Of a DNA stretch of 45,623 bases, positions 27,392-45,623 are shown piece by piece. Position numbers and translations under genes: made by a program. The number at the start of each line of letters is the position of its first letter. The first letter of the stretch is position 1. The notes beneath the pieces are model-generated. The model searched no databases. It had not been told where the DNA came from and worked only from the letters and a program-made list of their open reading frames with translations. The DNA comes from a virus (taxonomy: Duplodnaviria > Heunggongvirae > Uroviricota > Caudoviricetes). Location of the stretch: IMG/VR virus record IMGVR_UViG_2537561936_000015. One strand, given 5' to 3'.

Positions 27392-28417
27392 ATGTCGATG
27401 TACACAACCGCCCAGCTGCTGGCGGCAAATGAGCAGTAATTTAAGTTTGATCCGCTGTTTCTGCGTCTCTTTTTCCGTGAGAGCTATCCCTTCACCACGG
27501 AGAAAGTCTATCTCTCACAAATTCCGGGACTGGTAAACATGGCGCTGTACGTTTCGCCGATTGTTTCCGGTGAGGTTATCCGTTCCCGTGGCGGCTCCAC
27601 CTCTGAATTTACGCCGGGATATGTCAAACCCAAGCATGAGGTGAATCCGCAGATGACCCTGCGTCGCCTGCCGGATGAAGATCCGCAGAATCTGGCGGAC
27701 CCGGCTTACCGCCGCCGTCGCATCATCATGCAGAACATGCGAGACGAAGAGCTGGCCATTGCTCAGGTCGAAGAGATGCAGGCAGTTTCTGCTGTGCTTA
27801 AGGGCAAATACACCATGACCGGTGAAGCCTTCGATCCGGTTGAGGTGGATATGGGCCGCAGTGCGGCGAACAACATCACACAGTCCGGTGGTACGGAGTG
27901 GAGCAAGCGTGACAAGTCCACGTATGACCCGACCGACGATATCGAAGCCTATGCGCTGAACGCCAGCGGCGTGGTGAATATCATCGTGTTTGATCCGAAA
28001 GGCTGGGCGCTGTTCCGTTCCTTCAAAGCCGTCAAGGAGAAGCTGGATACCCGTCGCGGCTCTCATTCCGAGCTGGAGACAGCGGTAAAAGACCTGGGCG
28101 AAGCGGTGTCCTATAAGGGGATGTATGGCGATACGGCGATCGTCGTGTATTCCGGACAGTACGTGGAAAACGACGTCAAAAAGAACTTCCTGCCGGACAA
28201 CACGATGGTGCTGGGGAACACTCAGGCACGCGGTCTGCGCACCTATGGCTGCATTCAGGATGCGGACGCACAGCGCGAAGGTATTAACGCCTCTGCCCGC
28301 TACCCGAAAAACTGGGTGACCACCGGCGATCCGGCGCGTGAGTTCACCATGATTCAGTCAGCCCCGCTGATGCTGCTGGCTGATCCTGATGCGTTCGTGT
28401 CCGTACAACTGGCGTAA
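27392..28417 (+). pseudogene. E: Major capsid protein E with in-frame TAA at codon 16 (27437-27439); next in-frame ATG at 27539
   Basis: ATG at 27392 encodes MSMYTTAQLLAANEQ then TAA, then the same frame continues FKFDPLFLRLFFRESYPFTTEKVYLSQIPGLVNMALYVSP.. to 28417. Confidence 0.8.
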
Positions 28418-31387: not shown

Positions 31388-31803
31388 GTTTTGCCCTGAA
31401 ACTGGCGCGTGAGATGGGGCGACCCGACTGGCGTGCCATGCTTGCCGGGATGTCATCCACGGAGTATGCCGACTGGCACCGCTTTTACAGTACCCATTAT
31501 TTTCATGATGTTCTGCTGGATATGCACTTTTCCGGGCTGACGTACACCGTGCTCAGCCTGTTTTTCAGCGATCCGGATATGCATCCGCTGGATTTCAGTC
31601 TGCTGAACCGGCGTGAGGCTGACGAAGAGCCTGAAGATGATGTGCTGATGCAGAAAGCGGCAGGGCTTGCCGGAGGTGTCCGCTTTGGCCCGGACGGGAA
31701 TGAAGTTATCCCTACTTCCCCGGATGTGGCGGACATGACGGAGGATGACGTAATGCTGATGACAGTATCAGAAGGGATCGCAGGAGGAGTCCGGTATGGC
31801 TGA
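31369..31803 (+). CDS. T: Tail assembly protein T (expressed as G-T fusion by -1 frameshift)
   Basis: 144-aa open frame overlapping G 3' end; recognised as lambda gpT region. Confidence 0.85.
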   Translation: MFDGELSFALKLAREMGRPDWRAMLAGMSSTEYADWHRFYSTHYFHDVLLDMHFSGLTYTVLSLFFSDPDMHPLDFSLLNRREADEEPEDDVLMQKAAGLAGGVRFGPDGNEVIPTSPDVADMTEDDVMLMTVSEGIAGGVRYG

Positions 31804-34375
31804 ACCGGTAGGCGATCTGGTCGTTGATTTGAGTCTGGATGCGGCCAGATTTGACGAGCAGATGACCAGAGTCAGGCGTCATTTTTCCGGTACGGAAAGT
31901 GATGCGAAAAAAACAGCGGCAGTCGTTGAACAGTCGCTGAGCCGACAGGCGCTGGCTGCACAGAAAGCGGGGATTTCCGTCGGGCAGTATAAAGCCGCCA
32001 TGCGTATGCTGCCTGCACAGTTCACCGACGTGGCCACGCAGCTTGCAGGCGGGCAAAGTCCGTGGCTGATCCTGCTGCAACAGGGTGGTCAGGTTAAGGA
32101 CTCCTTCGGCGGGATGATCCCCATGTTCCGGGGGCTTGCCGGTGCGATCACCCTGCCGATGGTGGGGGCCACCTCGCTGGCGGTGGCGACCGGTGCGCTG
32201 GCGTATGCCTGGTATCAGGGCAACTCAACCCTGTCCGATTTCAACAAAACGCTGGTCCTTTCCGGCAATCAGGCGGGACTGACGGCAGATCGTATGCTGG
32301 TCCTGTCCAGAGCCGGGCAGGCGGCAGGGCTGACGTTTAACCAGACCAGCGAGTCACTGACGGCGCTGGTGAATGCCGGTGTGCGTGGTGGTGAGCAGTT
32401 TGAGGCGATCAGCCAGAGTGTGGCGCGTTTCTCCTCTGCATCCGGCGTGGAGGTGGACAAGGTCGCTGAAGCCTTCGGGAAGCTGACCACAGACCCGACG
32501 TCGGGACTGACAGCGATGGCACGTCAGTTCCATAACGTGACGGCGGAGCAGATTGCGTATGTTGCTCAGTTGCAGCGTTCCGGAGATGAAGCCGGGGCAT
32601 TGCAGGCGGCGAACGAGGCCGCAACGAAAGGGTTTGATGACCAGACCCGCCGCCTGAAAGAGAACATGGGCACGCTGGAGACCTGGGCAGACAGGACAGC
32701 ACGGGCATTCAAATCCATGTGGGATTCGGTGCTGGATATTGGTCGCCCGGACACTGCCCAGGGAATGCTGGAGAAAGCAGAAAAGGCTTTTGATGAGGCG
32801 GACAAAAAATGGCAGTGGTATCAGAGCCGGAGCCACCGGCGCGGTAAAACCTCAGCATTTCTTGCCAATCTCCGGGGAGCATGGGAGGACAGAGCGAATG
32901 CGCAACTTGGGCTTTCAGCCGCCACGTTGCAGGCCGATCTTGAAAAGGCCAGAGAGATGGCAGCAAAGGACTGGGCCGAGTCTGAGGCATCACGGCTGAA
33001 ATATACCGAAGAGGCGCAGAAGGCTTACGAACGGCTGCAGACGCCGCTGGAGAAATATACCGCCCGTCAGGAAGAACTGAACAAGGCACTGAAAGACGGG
33101 AAAATCCTGCAGGCGGATTACAACACGCTGATGGCGGCGGCGAAAAAGGATTATGAAGCGACGCTGAAAAAGCCGAAACAGTCCGGCGTGAAGGTGTCTG
33201 CGGGCGATCGTCAGGAAGACAGTGCTCATGCTGCCCTGCTGATGCTTCAGACAGAACTCCGGACGCTGGAGAAGCATGCCGGAGCGAATGAGAAAATCAG
33301 CCAGCAGCGCCGGGATTTGTGGAAGGCAGAAAGTCAGTTCGCGGTACTGGAGGAGGCGGCGCAACGTCGTCAGTTGTCTGCACAGGAGAAATCCCTGCTG
33401 GCGCATAAAGATGAGACGCTGGAGTACAAACGCCAGCTGGCTGCACTTGGCGACAAGGTTACGTATCAGGAGCGCCTGAACGCGCTGGCGCAGCAGGCGG
33501 ATAAATTCGCACAGCAGCAACGGGCAAAACGGGCCGCCATTGATGCGAAAAGCCGGGGGCTGACTGACCGGCAGGCAGAACGGGAAGCCACGGAACAGCG
33601 CCTGAAGGAACAGTATGGCGATAATCCGCTGGCGCTGAATAACGTCATGTCAGAGCAGAAAAAGACCTGGGCGGCTGAAGACCAGCTTCGCGGGAGCTGG
33701 ATGGCAGGCCTGAAGTCCGGCTGGAGTGAGTGGGAAGAGAGCGCCACGGACAGTATGTCGCAGGTTAAAAGTGCAGCCACGCAGACCTTTGATGGTATTG
33801 CACAGAATATGGCGGCGATGCTGACCGGCAGTGAGCAGAACTGGCGCAGCTTCACCCGTTCCGTGCTGTCCATGATGACAGAAATTCTGCTTAAGCAGGC
33901 AATGGTGGGGATTGTCGGGAGTATCGGCAGCGCCATTGGCGGTGCTGCCAGTGGTGGAGCATCCGCGTCAGGCGGTACAGCCATTCAGGCCGCTGCGGCG
34001 AAATTCCATTTTGCGACCGGGGGATTTACGGGAACCGGCGGCAAATATGAGCCAGCGGGGATTGTTCACCGTGGTGAATTTGTCTTCACGAAGGAGGCAA
34101 CCAGCCGGATTGGTGTCGGCAACCTGTACCGCCTGATGCGGGGCTATGCGGAAGGTGGTTATGTGGGCGGTGCCGGAAGTCCGGCGCAGATGCGGCGGGC
34201 TGAAGGCATTAATTTTAATCAGAACAATCACGTGGTGATTCAGAACGACGGTACGAATGGTCTGCCAGGTCCACAGATGATGAAGGCAGTGTATGACATG
34301 GCCCGCAAGGGTGCCCGTGATGAAATTCAGACACAGATGCGTGATGGTGGCCTGTTCTCCGGAGGTGGACGATGA
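31796..34375 (+). CDS. H: Tail tape-measure protein H
   Basis: 859-aa ORF MAEPVGDLVVDLSLDAARFDEQM.. recognised as lambda gpH with a divergent central segment. Confidence 0.95.
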   Translation: MAEPVGDLVVDLSLDAARFDEQMTRVRRHFSGTESDAKKTAAVVEQSLSRQALAAQKAGISVGQYKAAMRMLPAQFTDVATQLAGGQSPWLILLQQGGQVKDSFGGMIPMFRGLAGAITLPMVGATSLAVATGALAYAWYQGNSTLSDFNKTLVLSGNQAGLTADRMLVLSRAGQAAGLTFNQTSESLTALVNAGVRGGEQFEAISQSVARFSSASGVEVDKVAEAFGKLTTDPTSGLTAMARQFHNVTAEQIAYVAQLQRSGDEAGALQAANEAATKGFDDQTRRLKENMGTLETWADRTARAFKSMWDSVLDIGRPDTAQGMLEKAEKAFDEADKKWQWYQSRSHRRGKTSAFLANLRGAWEDRANAQLGLSAATLQADLEKAREMAAKDWAESEASRLKYTEEAQKAYERLQTPLEKYTARQEELNKALKDGKILQADYNTLMAAAKKDYEATLKKPKQSGVKVSAGDRQEDSAHAALLMLQTELRTLEKHAGANEKISQQRRDLWKAESQFAVLEEAAQRRQLSAQEKSLLAHKDETLEYKRQLAALGDKVTYQERLNALAQQADKFAQQQRAKRAAIDAKSRGLTDRQAEREATEQRLKEQYGDNPLALNNVMSEQKKTWAAEDQLRGSWMAGLKSGWSEWEESATDSMSQVKSAATQTFDGIAQNMAAMLTGSEQNWRSFTRSVLSMMTEILLKQAMVGIVGSIGSAIGGAASGGASASGGTAIQAAAAKFHFATGGFTGTGGKYEPAGIVHRGEFVFTKEATSRIGVGNLYRLMRGYAEGGYVGGAGSPAQMRRAEGINFNQNNHVVIQNDGTNGLPGPQMMKAVYDMARKGARDEIQTQMRDGGLFSGGGR

Positions 34376-34701: not shown

Positions 34702-35399
34702 TGCAGGATATCCGACAGGAAACACTGAATGAATGCACCCGTGCGGAGCAGTCGGCCAGCGTGGTGCTCTGGGAAATCGACCTGACAGAGGTCGGTGGAG
34801 AACGTTATTTTTTCTGTAATGAGCAGAACGAAAAAGGTGAGCCGGTCACCTGGCAGGGGCGACAGTATCAGCCGTATCCCATTCAGGGGAGTGGTTTTGA
34901 ACTGAATGGCAAAGGCACCAGTACGCGCCCCACGCTGACGGTTTCTAACCTGTACGGTATGGTCACTGGGATGGCGGAAGATATGCAGAGTCTGGTCGGC
35001 GGAACGGTGGTCCGGCGTAAGGTTTACGCCCGTTTTCTGGATGCGGTGAACTTCGTCAACGGAAACAGTTACGCCGATCCGGAGCAGGAGGTGATCAGCC
35101 GCTGGCGCATTGAGCAGTGCAGCGAACTGAGCGCGGTGAGTGCCTCCTTTGTACTGTCCACGCCGACGGAAACGGATGGCGCTGTTTTTCCGGGACGTAT
35201 CATGCTGGCCAACACCTGCACCTGGACCTATCGCGGCGATGAGTGCGGTTATCACGGTCCGGCTGTCGCGGATGAATATGACCAGCCAACGTCCGATATC
35301 ACGAAGGATAAATGCAGCAAATGCCTGAGCGGTTGTAAGTTCCGCAATAACGTCGGCAACTTTGGCGGCTTCCTTTCCATTAACAAACTTTCGCAGTAA
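34701..35399 (+). CDS. L: Tail tip protein L
   Basis: 232-aa ORF recognised as lambda gpL (Cys cluster near C-terminus). Confidence 0.95.
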   Translation: MQDIRQETLNECTRAEQSASVVLWEIDLTEVGGERYFFCNEQNEKGEPVTWQGRQYQPYPIQGSGFELNGKGTSTRPTLTVSNLYGMVTGMAEDMQSLVGGTVVRRKVYARFLDAVNFVNGNSYADPEQEVISRWRIEQCSELSAVSASFVLSTPTETDGAVFPGRIMLANTCTWTYRGDECGYHGPAVADEYDQPTSDITKDKCSKCLSGCKFRNNVGNFGGFLSINKLSQ

Positions 35400-35404
35400 A
35401 TCCC

Positions 35405-36148
35405 ATGACACAGACAGAATCAGCGATTCTGGCGCACGCCCGGCGATGTGCGCCAGCGGAGTCGTGCGGCTTCGTGGTAAGCACGCCGGAGGGGGAAAGA
35501 TATTTTCCCTGCGTGAATATTTCCGGTGAGCCGGAGGCGTATTTCCGTATGTCGCCGGAAGACTGGCTGCAGGCAGAAATGCAGGGTGAGATTGTGGCGC
35601 TGGTCCACAGCCACCCCGGTGGTCTGCCCTGGCTGAGTGAGGCCGACCGGCGGCTGCAGGTGCAGAGTGATTTGCCGTGGTGGCTGGTCTGCCGGGGGAC
35701 GATTCATAAGTTCCGCTGTGTGCCGCATCTCACCGGGCGGCGCTTTGAGCACGGTGTGACGGACTGTTACACACTGTTCCGGGATGCTTATCATCTTGCA
35801 GGTATCGATTTGCCGGATTTTTACCGACATGATGACTGGTGGAAATCAGGTCAGAATCTCTATCTGGATAATCTGGAGGCCACAGGGCTGTATCAGGTGC
35901 CGTTGTCATCAGCACAACCGGGCGATGTGCTGCTGTGCTGCTTTGGTTCATCGGTGCCGAATCATGCCGCCATTTACTGTGGTGACGGCGAGCTGCTGCA
36001 CCATATTCCTGAACAACTGAGCAAACGAGAGAGGTATACCGACAAATGGCAGCGACGCACACACTCCCTCTGGCGTCACCAGGCATGGCACGTATCTGCC
36101 TTTACGGGGATTTACAACGATTTGGCCGCCGCATCGATCTGCGTGTGA
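35405..36148 (+). CDS. K: Tail tip assembly protein K (JAB/MPN + NlpC/P60 domains)
   Basis: 247-aa ORF with JAMM motif (ALVHSHPGG..SEAD) and NlpC/P60 Cys/His (DCYTLF, NHAAIY). Confidence 0.85.
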   Translation: MTQTESAILAHARRCAPAESCGFVVSTPEGERYFPCVNISGEPEAYFRMSPEDWLQAEMQGEIVALVHSHPGGLPWLSEADRRLQVQSDLPWWLVCRGTIHKFRCVPHLTGRRFEHGVTDCYTLFRDAYHLAGIDLPDFYRHDDWWKSGQNLYLDNLEATGLYQVPLSSAQPGDVLLCCFGSSVPNHAAIYCGDGELLHHIPEQLSKRERYTDKWQRRTHSLWRHQAWHVSAFTGIYNDLAAASICV

Positions 36149-36685
36149 AAACGGGGGCCGAAGCCATCCGGGCGCTGGCCATGCAGATCCCGGCGTTTCG
36201 TCAGAAGCTGAGCGACGGCTGGTATCAGGTACGCATTGCCGGGCGTGATACAGGTGAAACGGAATTATCAGCCCGTTTCATGAACTCTGGCTGATGGTGC
36301 TGTGATCCATATCGTGCCGCGTCTGGCAGGAGCCAAAAGTGGCGGTGTGTTTCAGGCTGTGCTGGGGGCGGCTGTTATGGCGGTTGCTATATGGATGCCG
36401 GGGGTAGGAATTATGGCGAGTAATCTGCTGTTTTCTCTCGGTGCCAGTATGACGCTTGGCGGTGTTGCACAGATGCTGGCCCCTAAACCCAAAACCCCCC
36501 GCACACAGACAACGGATAACGGCAAACAGAACACCTATTTTTCTTCACTGGATAACATGGTTGCCCAGGGCAATGTTCTGCCTGTTCTGTACGGTGAAAT
36601 GCGCGTGGGGTCACGCGTGGTTTCTCAGGAGATCAGCACGGCAGACGAAGGGGATGGTGGTCAGGTTGTGGTGATTGGTCGCTGA
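36046..36685 (+). pseudogene. I: Tail tip assembly protein I, split into two reading frames (36046-36294 and 36302-36685)
   Basis: N-terminal part (MAATHTLPLASPGMARICLYGDLQRFGRRIDLRVKTG..) ends at TGA 36292-36294; C-terminal part (..AVIHIVPRLAGAKSGG..QVVVIGR) is in the +1 frame; span is 640 nt, not a multiple of 3. Confidence 0.6.
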
Positions 36686-36745
36686 TGCAAAATGTTTTAT
36701 GTGAAACCGCCTGCGGGCGGTTTTGTCATTTATGGAGCGTGAGGA

Positions 36746-39700
36746 ATGGGTAAAGGCAGCAGTAAGGGGCATACCCCGCGCGAAGCGAAGGACAACCTGA
36801 AGTCCACGCAGCTGCTGAGTGTGATCGATGCCATCAGCGAAGGGCCGGTTGAAGGTCCGGTGGATGGATTAAAAAGCGTGCTGCTGAACAGTACGCCGGT
36901 GCTGGACACTGAGGGGAATACCAACATCTCCGGTGTCACGGTGGTGTTCCGTGCCGGTGAGCAGGAGCAGACACCGCCGGAGGGGTTTGAATCCTCCGGC
37001 TCCGAGACGGTGCTGGGTACGGAAGTGAAATATGACACGCCGATCACCCGCACCATTACGTCTGCAAACATCGACCGTCTGCGCTTTACCTTCGGTGTGC
37101 AGGCACTGGTGGAAACCACCTCAAAGGGGGACCGGAATCCGTCGGAAGTCCGCCTGCTGGTTCAGATACAGCGTAACGGTGGCTGGGTGACGGAAAAAGA
37201 CATCACCATTAAGGGCAAAACCACCTCGCAGTATCTGGCCTCGGTGGTGGTGGATAACCTGCCGCCGCGCCCGTTTAATATCCGGATGCGCAGGATGACG
37301 CCGGACAGCACCACAGACCAGCTGCAGAACAAAACGCTCTGGTCGTCATACACCGAAATCATCGATGTGAAACAGTGCTACCCGAACACGGCACTGGTCG
37401 GCGTGCAGGTGGACTCGGAACAGTTCGGCAGCCAGCAGGTGAGCCGTAATTATCATCTTCGCGGGCGTATTCTGCAGGTGCCGTCGAACTATAACCCGCA
37501 GACGCGGCAATACAGCGGTATCTGGGACGGAACGTTTAAGCCAGCATACAGCAACAACATGGCCTGGTGTATGTGGGATATGCTGACCCATCCGCGCTAC
37601 GGCATGGGGAAGCGTCTCGGTGCAGCGGATGTAGATAAATGGGCGCTGTATGTCATCGGCCAGAATTGCGACCAGTCGGTGCCGGATGGCTTTGGTGGCA
37701 CGGAGCCGCGCATCACCTGTAATGCCTGGCTGACCACACAGCGCAAGGCGTGGGATGTTCTCAGTGATTTCTGCTCGGCGATGCGCTGTATGCCGGTATG
37801 GAACGGGCAGACGCTGACGTTCGTGCAGGACCGACCGTCGGATAAGGTGTGGACCTATAACCGCAGTAATGTGGTGATGCCGGATGATGGCGCGCCGTTC
37901 CGCTACAGCTTCAGTGCCCTGAAGGACCGTCATAATGCCGTTGAGGTGAACTGGATTGACCCGGATAACGGCTGGGAGACGGCGACAGAGCTTGTTGAAG
38001 ATACGCAGGCCATTGCCCGTTACGGTCGTAACGTCACGAAGATGGATGCCTTTGGCTGTACCAGCCGGGGGCAGGCGCACCGCGCCGGGCTGTGGCTGAT
38101 TAAAACGGAACTACTGGAAACGCAGACCGTGGACTTCAGCGTGGGTGCGGAAGGGCTTCTCCATGTGCCGGGCGATGTCATTGAAATCTGCGATGATGAC
38201 TATGCGGGGATCAGCACCGGCGGGCGCGTGCTGGCGGTGAACAGCCAGACCCGGACGCTGACGCTCGACCGTGAAATCACGCTGCCATCCTCCGGTACCA
38301 CGCTGATAAGCCTGGTTGACGGAAGTGGCAATCCGGTCAGCGTGGAGGTCCAGTCCGTCACCGACGGCGTGAAGGTAAAAGTGAGCCGTGTTCCTGACGG
38401 CGTTGCCGGATACAGCGTATGGGGGCTGAAGCTGCCGACGCTGCGCCAGCGCCTGTTCCGCTGCGTGAGTATCCGTGAGAACGACGACGGCACGTATGCC
38501 ATCACCGCCGTGCAGCATGTACCGGAAAAAGAAGCCATCGTGGATAACGGGGCGCACTTTGACGGCGACCAGAGCGGCACGGTGAATGGTGTCACGCCGC
38601 CAGCAGTGCAGCACCTGACTGCCGAAGTCACCGCAGACAGCGGGGAGTATCAGGTACTGGCCCGCTGGGACACGCCGAAGGTGGTGAAGGGCGTGAGTTT
38701 CCTGCTCCGTCTGACCGTGACAGCGGATGACGGCAGTGAGCGGCTGGTCAGCACAGCCAGGACGACGGAAACCACATACCGCTTCACGCAACTGGCGCTG
38801 GGAAATTACAGGCTGACAGTCCGGGCGGTAAATGCGTGGGGACAGCAGGGCGATCCGGCATCGGTATCGTTCCGGATTGCCGCACCGGCAGCACCGTCGC
38901 GGATTGAGCTGACGCCGGGCTATTTTCAGATAACCGCCACGCCGCATCTTGCGGTTTATGATCCGACGGTACAGTTTGAGTTCTGGTTCTCGGAAAAGCG
39001 GATTGCGGATATCAGGCAGGTTGAAACCACAGCACGCTATCTTGGCACGGCGCTGTACTGGATAGCCGCCAGTATCAATATCAGGCCGGGCCATAATTAT
39101 TATTTTTACGTTCGCAGTGTGAACACCGTTGGCAAATCGGCATTCGTGGAGGCTGTTGGTCAGCCGAGTGATGACGCATCCGGCTATCTGGATTTTTTCA
39201 AAGGCGAGATAGGGAAAACCCATCTGGCTCAGGAGCTGTGGACGCAGATTGATAACGGTCAGCTTGCGCCTGACCTGGCTGAAATCAGGACATCCATTAC
39301 GGATGTCAGCAATGAAATCACACAGACCGTCAATAAGAAACTGGAAGACCAGAGTGCAGCGATCCAGCAGATACAGAAGGTTCAGGTTGATACAAATAAT
39401 AATCTGAACAGCATGTGGGCTGTGAAGCTGCAGCAGATGCAGGACGGACGCCTTTATATCGCGGGTATCGGTGCCGGTATTGAGAACACCTCCGACGGCA
39501 TGCAGAGTCAGGTGCTGCTGGCGGCAGACAGGATTGCGATGATTAATCCTGCGAATGGCAACACAAAGCCGATGTTTGTTGGTCAGGGCGATCAGATATT
39601 CATGAACGAAGTGTTCCTGAAATATCTGACGGCTCCCACCATTACCAGCGGCGGTAATCCTCCGGCATTTTCCCTGACACCGGACGGAAAGCTGACCGCT

Positions 39701-40225
39701 AAAAATGCGGATATCAGTGGCAGTGTGAATGCGAACGCCGGGACGCTCAACAACGTCACGATTAACGAGAACTGCCGGGTTCTGGGAAAACTGTCCGCGA
39801 ACCAGATTGAAGGCGATCTCGTTAAAACAGTGGGCAAAGCTTTCCCCCGGGACTCCCGTGCACCGGAGCGGTGGCCATCAGGGACCATTACCGTCAGGGT
39901 TTATGACGATCAGCCGTTTGACCGGCAAATTGTTATTCCGGCGGTGGCATTCAGTGGCGCTAAGCATGAGAGAGAGCATACTGATATTTACTCCTCATGC
40001 CGTCTGATAGTGCGGAAAAACGGTGCTGAAATTTATAACCGTACCGCGCTGGATAATACGCTGATTTACAGTGGCGTTATTGATATGCCTGCCGGTCACG
40101 GTCACATGACGCTGGAGTTTTCGGTATCAGCATGGCTGGTGAATAACTGGTATCCCACAGCAAGTATCAGCGATTTGCTGGTTGTGGTGATGAAGAAAGC
40201 CACCGCAGGCATCAGTATCAGCTGA
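36746..40225 (+). CDS. J: Tail tip / host-specificity protein J
   Basis: 1159-aa [48 protein letters not shown].. recognised as lambda gpJ family. Confidence 0.95.
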
Positions 40226-43871: not shown

Positions 43872-44399
43872 ATGATGCACCTGAAAAATATTAAGGCCGG
43901 GAATCCGAAAACAAAAGAGCAATACCAGCTAACTAAAAAAGCGGGCGTGGTATGGCTCTTTTGCGAAGATGGCAAAAACTGGTATGAGGAACAAAAGAAT
44001 TTTCAGCCAGACACCATAAAAATTGCTTACGATGAGAACAACATCATCGTTGCTGTCAGTAAAGACGTTTCAACTATTAATCCTGAAGGGCTAAGCATAG
44101 TTGAAGTTCCTGATATTACGGCAAATCGTCGCGCAGACAATAACGGAAAATGGATGTTTCTGGATGGTAAAGTAGTAAAGAGGGAATATACAGAACAGGA
44201 ACTGCAACAACAGGCCGAATCACAAAAGGCCGCATTGCTTTCCGAAGCTGAATCAGTCATCCAGCCGCTGGAACGCGCTGTCAGGCTGAATATGGCAACA
44301 GACGAGGAACGCACACGACTGGAAGCATGGGAACGCTACAGTGTTCTGGTCAGCCGTGTGGATACGGCAAATCCTGAATGGCCACAAAAGCCTGAATAA
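43872..44399 (+). CDS. tfa: Tail fibre assembly protein Tfa
   Basis: 175-aa [48 protein letters not shown].. Confidence 0.85.
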
Positions 44400-44405
44400 A
44401 AATTA

Positions 44406-44422
44406 AGGCCCGATAGCGGGCC
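44406..44422. terminator. Hairpin AGGCCCG-atag-CGGGCCT between convergent tfa genes (putative bidirectional terminator)
   Basis: 7-bp perfect stem between stop codons at 44399 and 44428. Confidence 0.4.
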
Positions 44423-44427
44423 TCGTC

Positions 44428-44961
44428 TCATTCAGGTTGTTCGGGAAATGTTACTGGCAGGCTGGAGGTGTCTGTAGATTCGACTTTCTGCGCATAGAGC
44501 ATCCACTCGGTTAATTTTTGTTTATTCTCGTCGGAAATGATGCCCAGCCGTAGCTGTGAGTCCCATAGCTGGGTTTTATCCCTGACAAGTTGCAACAGGC
44601 TTTGCTTTTCATTCTCTGCCTGCTGCCTCTGTTCCTCTTCGGTATAAGTTCGCTTTATCACTACGCCATCTTTGAACATCCATTTACCCGAAATATCAGC
44701 CCGGCGATTTGCTGTAATATCAGGTAATTCAACGACGCTTGCGCCTTCCGGATTAATTGCTGAAACATCCTTTTCAATACAAATAATAACGCCGTTATGG
44801 TCATAGGCCATTTTCAATGTGTCTGGCCGGAAATTCTTTTGTTCCTCATACCAGTTTTTTCCATTGTCTGAATAAAGCCATTTGATGTTAAATTGCTTTG
44901 TTAGCTGGTATTGCTCTTTTGTTTTAGGATTGCCAGCAGTAATGTTTTTTAAGTGCATCAT
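44428..44961 (-). CDS. Alternative tail fibre assembly protein Tfa' (inverted orientation)
   Basis: 177-aa [48 protein letters not shown].., paralogous to tfa at 43872-44399 on the opposite strand. Confidence 0.8.
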   Translation of the reverse strand: MMHLKNITAGNPKTKEQYQLTKQFNIKWLYSDNGKNWYEEQKNFRPDTLKMAYDHNGVIICIEKDVSAINPEGASVVELPDITANRRADISGKWMFKDGVVIKRTYTEEEQRQQAENEKQSLLQLVRDKTQLWDSQLRLGIISDENKQKLTEWMLYAQKVESTDTSSLPVTFPEQPE

Positions 44962-44963
44962 AA

Positions 44964-45623
44964 TTAAATACTCCCTGCGTTATACCACGTTCCATTAATG
45001 CAATACTGAATTGGCCTTGCCTGAGTTGTATCAATTAATTCATCACGGTTTCCGTTAACTGAACCCGTAACGACATAACCTGACCTGTCAGACCAGCCGG
45101 GACCATTCCATGTCTGAACAGATGACAGACCGCCCAGACGAATACCTGTAATAAACTTTGAGTTACATTCCGCTTTGGTATATGCACCAACATCCCCCGC
45201 AGAGGGTTTGTAGGTTGTGGTGTAAAACGCTGACCAGTTATCTTCAAAGCCATAACCATCACGCGCTGAACGATAAAGGATACCGCCGTTCCTGTAATTC
45301 ACACGGAACTGTACGGCAGGGCAACTCCCCGTATTCATATTGAAGTGGAGTATTAATGCTGTTGCGCCTTTGATATCTGCATCATAAACACCGCTATTCC
45401 AGTTCCAGCCAACAGCTTTATCATTTGCAACCCTGCTTCCTGTTTGCCCTAAAGCAAATGCAGGCTGCTGGTTTTTCGTGTTGTAGTCTCGTCGCCAGCC
45501 AGGAGCATAAGCATCACCATGATTAATATAGGTGAATTGAGCGTTAGTAATTCCGCCGCCGCTGGACGTACTCGCCGTAGTAACGCGTATGGTCATTGCG
45601 CCGCGAGTGCCAATAACTTCCAC
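44964..45623 (-). CDS. Alternative side tail fibre C-terminal domain (inverted orientation; 5' end beyond window)
   Basis: Open to window edge; C-terminus ..RDELIDTTQARPIQYCINGTWYNAGSI parallels stf C-terminus ..[26 protein letters not shown]. Confidence 0.75.
   Translation of the reverse strand: MEVIGTRGAMTIRVTTASTSSGGGITNAQFTYINHGDAYAPGWRRDYNTKNQQPAFALGQTGSRVANDKAVGWNWNSGVYDADIKGATALILHFNMNTGSCPAVQFRVNYRNGGILYRSARDGYGFEDNWSAFYTTTYKPSAGDVGAYTKAECNSKFITGIRLGGLSSVQTWNGPGWSDRSGYVVTGSVNGNRDELIDTTQARPIQYCINGTWYNAGSI

Follow-up and report, generated by a model that had tools for sequence, protein, structure and literature searches.

A frameshifted tail assembly gene I with a clustered lesion in a defective lambda-type prophage of Escherichia coli

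Analysis of a 45,623-nucleotide stretch of viral DNA (here called the window) revealed that I, a classical tail-assembly gene, does not encode one protein at this locus. A single uninterrupted I ORF of about 200-223 aa is absent, and ORFs of 82 aa and 127 aa are present instead in different frames. We conclude that a well-known gene has here become a frameshifted pseudogene of an ordinary kind in a defective E. coli prophage, a local assembly error being the less likely account. Our full reading, to which we assign a probability of about 0.65, is that I is a pseudogene in a decaying prophage and was hit by a templated event.

The window carries a lambda-type tail module consisting of H (31796-34375), M, L, K (35405-36148), I and J (36746-40225), and the L-K-I-J gene order matches that of the lambda-type module as judged from the ORF list, Pfam matches and the annotation of collinear relatives. 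Both neighbors of I are intact and lie on the + strand. K, upstream, encodes peptidase domains of the JAB/MPN and NlpC/P60 types, and J, downstream, encodes the central tail fibre of 1159 aa. The start of I at 36046 lies 103 nt within K, in another frame. From this ATG the 5' fragment of I (ORF1) extends on the + strand to a TGA ending at 36294 and encodes 82 aa, composed of 77 native residues followed by the out-of-frame residues FMNSG. The remainder of I occupies the +1 frame of the same strand (36284-36685). This frame opens at 36284, past its own TGA at 36281-36283, and the ORF listed in it (ORF2, 36302-36685, 127 aa) starts at a GTG that sits 7 nt past the TGA at 36292-36294. The two frames share 11 nt (36284-36294), and the I span totals 640 nt, which is 1 mod 3. 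An earlier sequence-only reading of this DNA had described the same two ORFs and a span that is not a multiple of three, exactly as we find them.

The two ORFs were compared with the intact I of E. coli 503025, a protein of 213 aa. Residues 1-77 of ORF1 are 100% identical to the corresponding residues of the intact protein, and the final 129 residues of the +1 frame are 100% identical to its residues 85-213. The whole of the intact 503025 protein can be aligned with lambda gpI (223 aa; E = 8.7e-108 with PDB 8iyk chain I), and homology to gpI is present over both the N-terminal ubiquitin-like and the C-terminal domains. By sequence comparison, then, the two ORFs are a genuine split of one homologous gene and not a chance pair. 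The earlier statement that I is normally a single protein was borne out, as the intact relatives examined encode one ORF of 213-223 aa; functional relatives encoding two separate proteins, which that reading had named as the contrary case, were not found among them. The annotated start of I varies by record, corresponding to positions 36046, 36085 or 36145 of the window, and because of this variable choice the annotated length of one and the same gene ranges from 180 to 223 aa.

The closest records to the window at this locus are phages 500465-3, 606R7, PhiR49_1 and mEp332 together with many E. coli chromosomes, in which the I span measures 642 nt versus 640 nt in the window. PhiR49_1 and mEp332 are annotated with one I CDS, and all annotated close relatives are single-gene. 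A length of 640 nt was not found among the top matches in complete E. coli genomes and phage records, the best of which have 642 nt and an intact I. The window allele itself was absent from 5,426 complete E. coli genomes and 50,697 phage records (no match at 99% identity or above, and none to a query with the lesion patch alone). A 37-aa peptide specific to the patch is recorded solely in contig APYJ01000143.1 of assembly GCA_000357145.2, which is 100% identical to the window across the compared 1,341 nt (K-I, 35405-36745) and evidently represents the origin of the window sequence or a clone of that origin. Neither the 82-aa product nor a 69-aa product had a record in other assemblies. As a stand-alone ORF, the 127-aa reading frame is called in no fewer than 24 further contigs; the patch region is intact there, and these calls stem from N-gaps, scaffold duplications or another indel. 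Other split I genes that we saw were annotated frameshifted pseudogenes only.

Alignment with the 503025-type allele resolved the anatomy of the lesion. Across 35789-36727 (940 nt), the window and E. coli 503025 differ by one SNP and six lesion edits and are otherwise identical; the lone SNP, at 36328, is synonymous. All six edits fall within 18 nt of the + strand (36276-36293), where roughly 19 nt have become 17 nt. They comprise two deletions of 1 nt each (36276/77 and 36284/85) and four substitutions (36279, 36286, 36292 and 36293), such that CCGTCTTAATGAACCGCTGGCAAATGG in the 503025-type allele reads CCGTTTCATGAACTCTGGCTGATGG in the window. The last two substitutions, AA>TG, change GGCAAAT to GGCTGAT and create a premature TGA in the I frame (36292-36294, + strand). 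As a result of the net loss of 2 nt and the AA>TG change, the frame is shifted, a TGA is met five codons on, and the product ends at 82 aa. The sequence-only reading had proposed an indel of 1-2 nt near 36256-36291. A net 2-nt loss does lie in that interval, but the lesion comprises six edits at 36276-36293 rather than one such indel. A simple 1-2-nt indel or a homopolymer error is excluded by the occurrence of two deletions and four substitutions within 18 nt where there is no homopolymer; inspection of the homopolymer context, a point raised in that reading, placed no edit within any homopolymer. The frame break is likewise not the mosaic junction between the GPEC60-like backbone and the 503025-like tail-tip module, which lies in K at approximately 35.5-35.8 kb, about 480 nt upstream.

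The patch closely resembles a different allele of I. The 17-nt patch of the window is 3 edits away from the lambda-type sequence TTACATGAGACTCTGCCTG, an allele carried at the I locus by strain GPEC60-12-649, the closest relative of the prophage backbone, while the ancestor-like patch is 8 edits away. A resemblance that close was obtained for 1 of 200,000 random patches of equal edit load (p about 5e-6), a value computed after the pattern had been seen. Each of the four substitutions introduces the lambda-type base, and the two gaps can be aligned with columns that distinguish the alleles. Compared with a lambda-type donor, the patch lacks two bases and retains the 503025-type base at one position. 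Going by this likeness, the patch may be a remnant of, or a micro-conversion from, a lambda-type I allele. No donor copy of the patch was found elsewhere in the window at 3 mismatches or fewer. An in-frame chimeric parent, combining a 503025-type left flank with a lambda-like patch, was sought without success in complete E. coli genomes, phage records, IMG/VR, the GTDB species representatives and the JGI metagenomes.

The edits also complete two inverted repeats. The first (36255-36280) pairs TGAAACGG at 36255-36262 with CCGTTTCA at 36273-36280 and matches at 8 of 8 positions in the window versus 6 of 8 in the ancestor-like allele. The second (36267-36295) pairs ATCAGCC at 36267-36273 with GGCTGAT at 36289-36295 and matches at 7 of 7 positions versus 5 of 7. 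Both repeats were gained in only 2 of 20,000 random patches, again computed after the pattern was seen, and the predicted energy of the DNA hairpin changes from -3.8 kcal/mol in the ancestor-like allele to -8.1 kcal/mol in the window. Two of the 3 edits that part the patch from the lambda-type sequence are those that complete the two repeats. Completion of this kind is the mark expected of quasi-palindrome template switching, a process reportedly formulated as the Ripley model and reportedly studied in E. coli by the Lovett laboratory. As in the window, it involves clustered substitutions and a 1-nt loss that perfect imperfect inverted repeats. The window differs in that two separate repeats have to be corrected simultaneously, and in that positions 36284-36286 are untemplated while the patch matches another allele far above chance. 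Specifically, the change of ACCGCTGG to AC-TCTGG (36284-36286) is complementary to neither arm, and copying from the opposite arm leaves these edits unexplained. Neither model covers all six edits: the repeats miss 36284-36286 and a lambda-type donor misses the two lost bases. Since the patch both resembles the lambda-type allele and completes two repeats, a templated event is suggested, and the patch probably arose as a single complex templated event rather than as six independent mutations.

We considered whether the lesion could have been produced during assembly; the sequence-only reading had named a sequencing error as its alternative. On this account the true I is intact, and reads from the lambda-type I of a second prophage were merged into the local consensus. 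Merging of this kind would yield a hybrid patch with dropped bases, and the substitutions are indeed all lambda-type while the gaps fit columns where the two alleles differ. Paralogous reads are plausible, given that E. coli genomes with I homologues hold a median of 2 and a maximum of 12 copies, and the split allele is private to one WGS draft assembly. However, no allele mixing is seen beyond the patch, the comparison of 35789-36727 with 503025 showing a single SNP despite many columns at which the alleles differ. The assembly is not generally error-prone either, with zero indels relative to GPEC60 over positions 1-36250, and the lost bases lie outside homopolymers. Two perfected inverted repeats would not be expected from consensus noise. 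Moreover, k-mer graph assemblers do not emit k-mers that the reads lack. We regard an artefact as rather unlikely on these grounds, and the I lesion as, with fair probability, a real mutation. If it were an artefact, the locus would serve as a caution on consensus errors where paralogous prophage genes meet; if real, it would represent a natural complex templated mutation or a micro-conversion between co-resident lambdoid prophages.

The position of the break within the protein bears on what would be lost. I opens at its N terminus with a ubiquitin-like beta-grasp domain, closed by a conserved glycine, and continues through a Gly-rich linker into a C-terminal domain (PMC1779556); Iyer et al. 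predict that the JAB peptidase domain of K cleaves I at that glycine (PMC1779556). In cryo-EM structures of lambda, gpI residues 135-223 form a trimeric plug in the lumen of the tail tip (PMC10721106), with gpI resolved from residue 101 onward as a plug trimer in a second study (PMC11101478). The plug retains the tape-measure protein and DNA, and the N-terminal domain is unseen in virions (PMC10721106, PMC11101478). ORF1 matches Pfam PF06805 (Lambda_tail_I) with E = 8.9e-19 over profile positions 2-63 of 83, versus positions 2-83 in intact relatives. The break falls after residue 77, at profile position 63 of 83, and is located within the beta-grasp fold rather than at a domain boundary. It precedes the ...AGAKSGG motif by about 20 residues; this motif is in the other frame, and ORF1 lacks a complete beta-grasp domain with its C-terminal glycine. 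The remainder in the +1 frame encodes the Gly-rich linker and the hydrophobic helices, along with the C-terminal plug region seen resolved in structures of the lambda tail tip.

Both halves of the window's gene are homologous to lambda gpI (223 aa; PDB 8IYK/8IYL/8K35/8XCG chain I; PF06805 plus TAPI-C), which shares the position between K and J, the ubiquitin-like domain, the Gly-rich linker, the hydrophobic helices and the C-terminal plug. Unlike lambda, the window encodes no single polypeptide of that architecture, the frame being lost after residue 77. In the mechanism we propose, an intact 503025-type I of 213 aa would have been hit by one localized and probably templated event at 36276-36293. 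The resulting 82-aa fragment would stop short of the final strand and the terminal Gly-Gly of the ubiquitin-like domain, and the C-terminal plug part would be cut off from a proper translation start. Neither functional gpI nor infectious tails would be expected. Taking domain content and frame together, loss of gpI function, and hence of infectious tails, is the most likely consequence, in line with the tail-tip assembly defect proposed in the sequence-only reading. A partial parallel is the side tail fibre gene stf of laboratory lambda, in which a frameshift also splits a tail gene into two adjacent ORFs in different frames and a tail component is lost (PMC10721106). The phage tolerates loss of stf, whereas gpI plugs the tail tip structurally, and a phage without it would be expected to lack tail function.

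A split that is tolerated would require that ribosomes terminate at the TGA at 36292-36294 and reinitiate at the GTG at 36302 or at internal ATGs, making the plug as a separate protein. The GTG start 7 nt past the stop is suggestive of this, and low-level coupled translation of the 127-aa ORF from that point may occur. The 127-aa ORF also includes every gpI residue resolved in lambda tails, the N-terminal domain being unseen in virions, and the Gly-Gly at which JAB cleavage is predicted (PMC1779556) is some 20 residues downstream of the break. SD-like pairing reaches -8.4 kcal/mol at one internal ATG of the ORF2 frame (36377) and -9.9 kcal/mol at another (36413). The anti-SD pairing of the GTG at 36302, at -3.1 kcal/mol, is however weak compared with the -7 to -11 kcal/mol at most neighboring starts. 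Furthermore, the break is inside the beta-grasp fold, the arrangement occurs in no relative, the allele is private with no sign of selection for it, and the prophage would be unable to make capsids in any case. A tolerated split is accordingly very improbable in our estimation, and that working tails are made despite the split, with a plug supplied by termination and reinitiation at the GTG at 36302, is highly improbable. If it were true, the covalent ubiquitin-like domain of gpI would be dispensable or trans-acting. As a side observation, translation from the ATG at 36413 would give a 90-aa product beginning near the start of the resolved lambda gpI plug, which is probably a coincidence. A programmed +1 ribosomal frameshift joining the two frames, comparable to the -1 frameshift between G and T in this tail operon, has next to no probability: the 11-nt overlap of the frames (36284-36294) and the capacity of an A-site stop codon to stimulate +1 shifts are compatible with it, but on inspection AAC TCT GGC TGA offers no slippery codon permitting +1 re-pairing, intact relatives are all single-frame and the arrangement is conserved nowhere, and we exclude it on the missing +1 slippery site and the lack of conservation.

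The major capsid gene E (27392-28417) contains an in-frame TAA at codon 16 (27437-27439; ...AANEQ*FKFD...), a codon that is Lys in lambda. The sequence-only reading had noted an E nonsense codon and a decaying prophage; the stop is real and fits such decay. E. coli GPEC60-12-649 has an identical stop, and its PGAP annotation begins the capsid gene at a downstream ATG corresponding to 27455, for a product of 320 aa. The lengths of the window's other head and tail genes are lambda-like. On the evidence of E, the prophage lineage is predicted to be head-defective. Because the E stop is common to GPEC60 and the I lesion is private, the prophage was most likely head-defective before I was hit. The tail genes of this prophage were probably under no selection once its major capsid gene had been lost, and the most likely sequence of events would be loss of the capsid first and the I lesion later, under relaxed selection and continuing decay.

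Breaks in I at nearly the same spot recur in prophages, although the lesions there are simpler and of other kinds. Two complete genomes, those of E. coli 789 (NZ_CP010315.1) and TUM2826 (NZ_CP128947.1), carry the PGAP annotation 'tail assembly protein, frameshifted'. Both have the same I allele type as the window, a break within a few bases of the window's, and intact K and J. Their lesion is the loss of one A from CTTAATG (locus positions ~690-720), and strain 789 has a second deletion 12 nt upstream, where a T is lost from GGAATTATC. These are plain 1-nt deletions, in contrast to the six-edit cluster with lambda-type bases found in the window. CTTAATG may be a recurrent indel site, or may attract recurrent long-read errors. 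The significance of the locus is slight beyond annotation, for which the label should be a frameshifted I pseudogene in a defective prophage with both E and I broken, and not two hypothetical proteins; what is mildly instructive is the shape of the lesion, a clustered and apparently templated patch in which two I alleles are mixed and two inverted repeats are perfected.

Comparison with relatives along its length indicates that the window is a mosaic of a GPEC60-like backbone and a 503025-like tail-tip module. Over the first 34.9 kb, 10 SNPs separate it from the GPEC60-12-649 prophage, with no indels. The switch occurs inside K at approximately 35.5-35.8 kb and is followed by near-identity with ETEC-type strains such as 503025 (K 3' end, I and J). 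The transition zone occupies positions ~34890-35800 of the window, in genes L and K. Positions 1-21000 include cargo and late-region genes like those of DLP12, namely emrE, the ybcK recombinase, ybcN, ninE, rusA, quuD, an ompC/nmpC-like porin and the essD/rrrD lysis genes, and also hold Red exo/bet/gam; on this side, that of the lambda attachment site, the prophage adjoins ybhC. At the other end, past the side tail fibre gene, positions 43872-45623 contain two opposed tail-fibre-assembly genes and an inverted ORF for a tail-fibre C terminus, and a 64-aa resolvase-domain fragment lies just past the window end. From its gene arrangement, the region at 43872-45623 looks like a Gin/Pin-type invertible tail-fibre segment with a truncated invertase.
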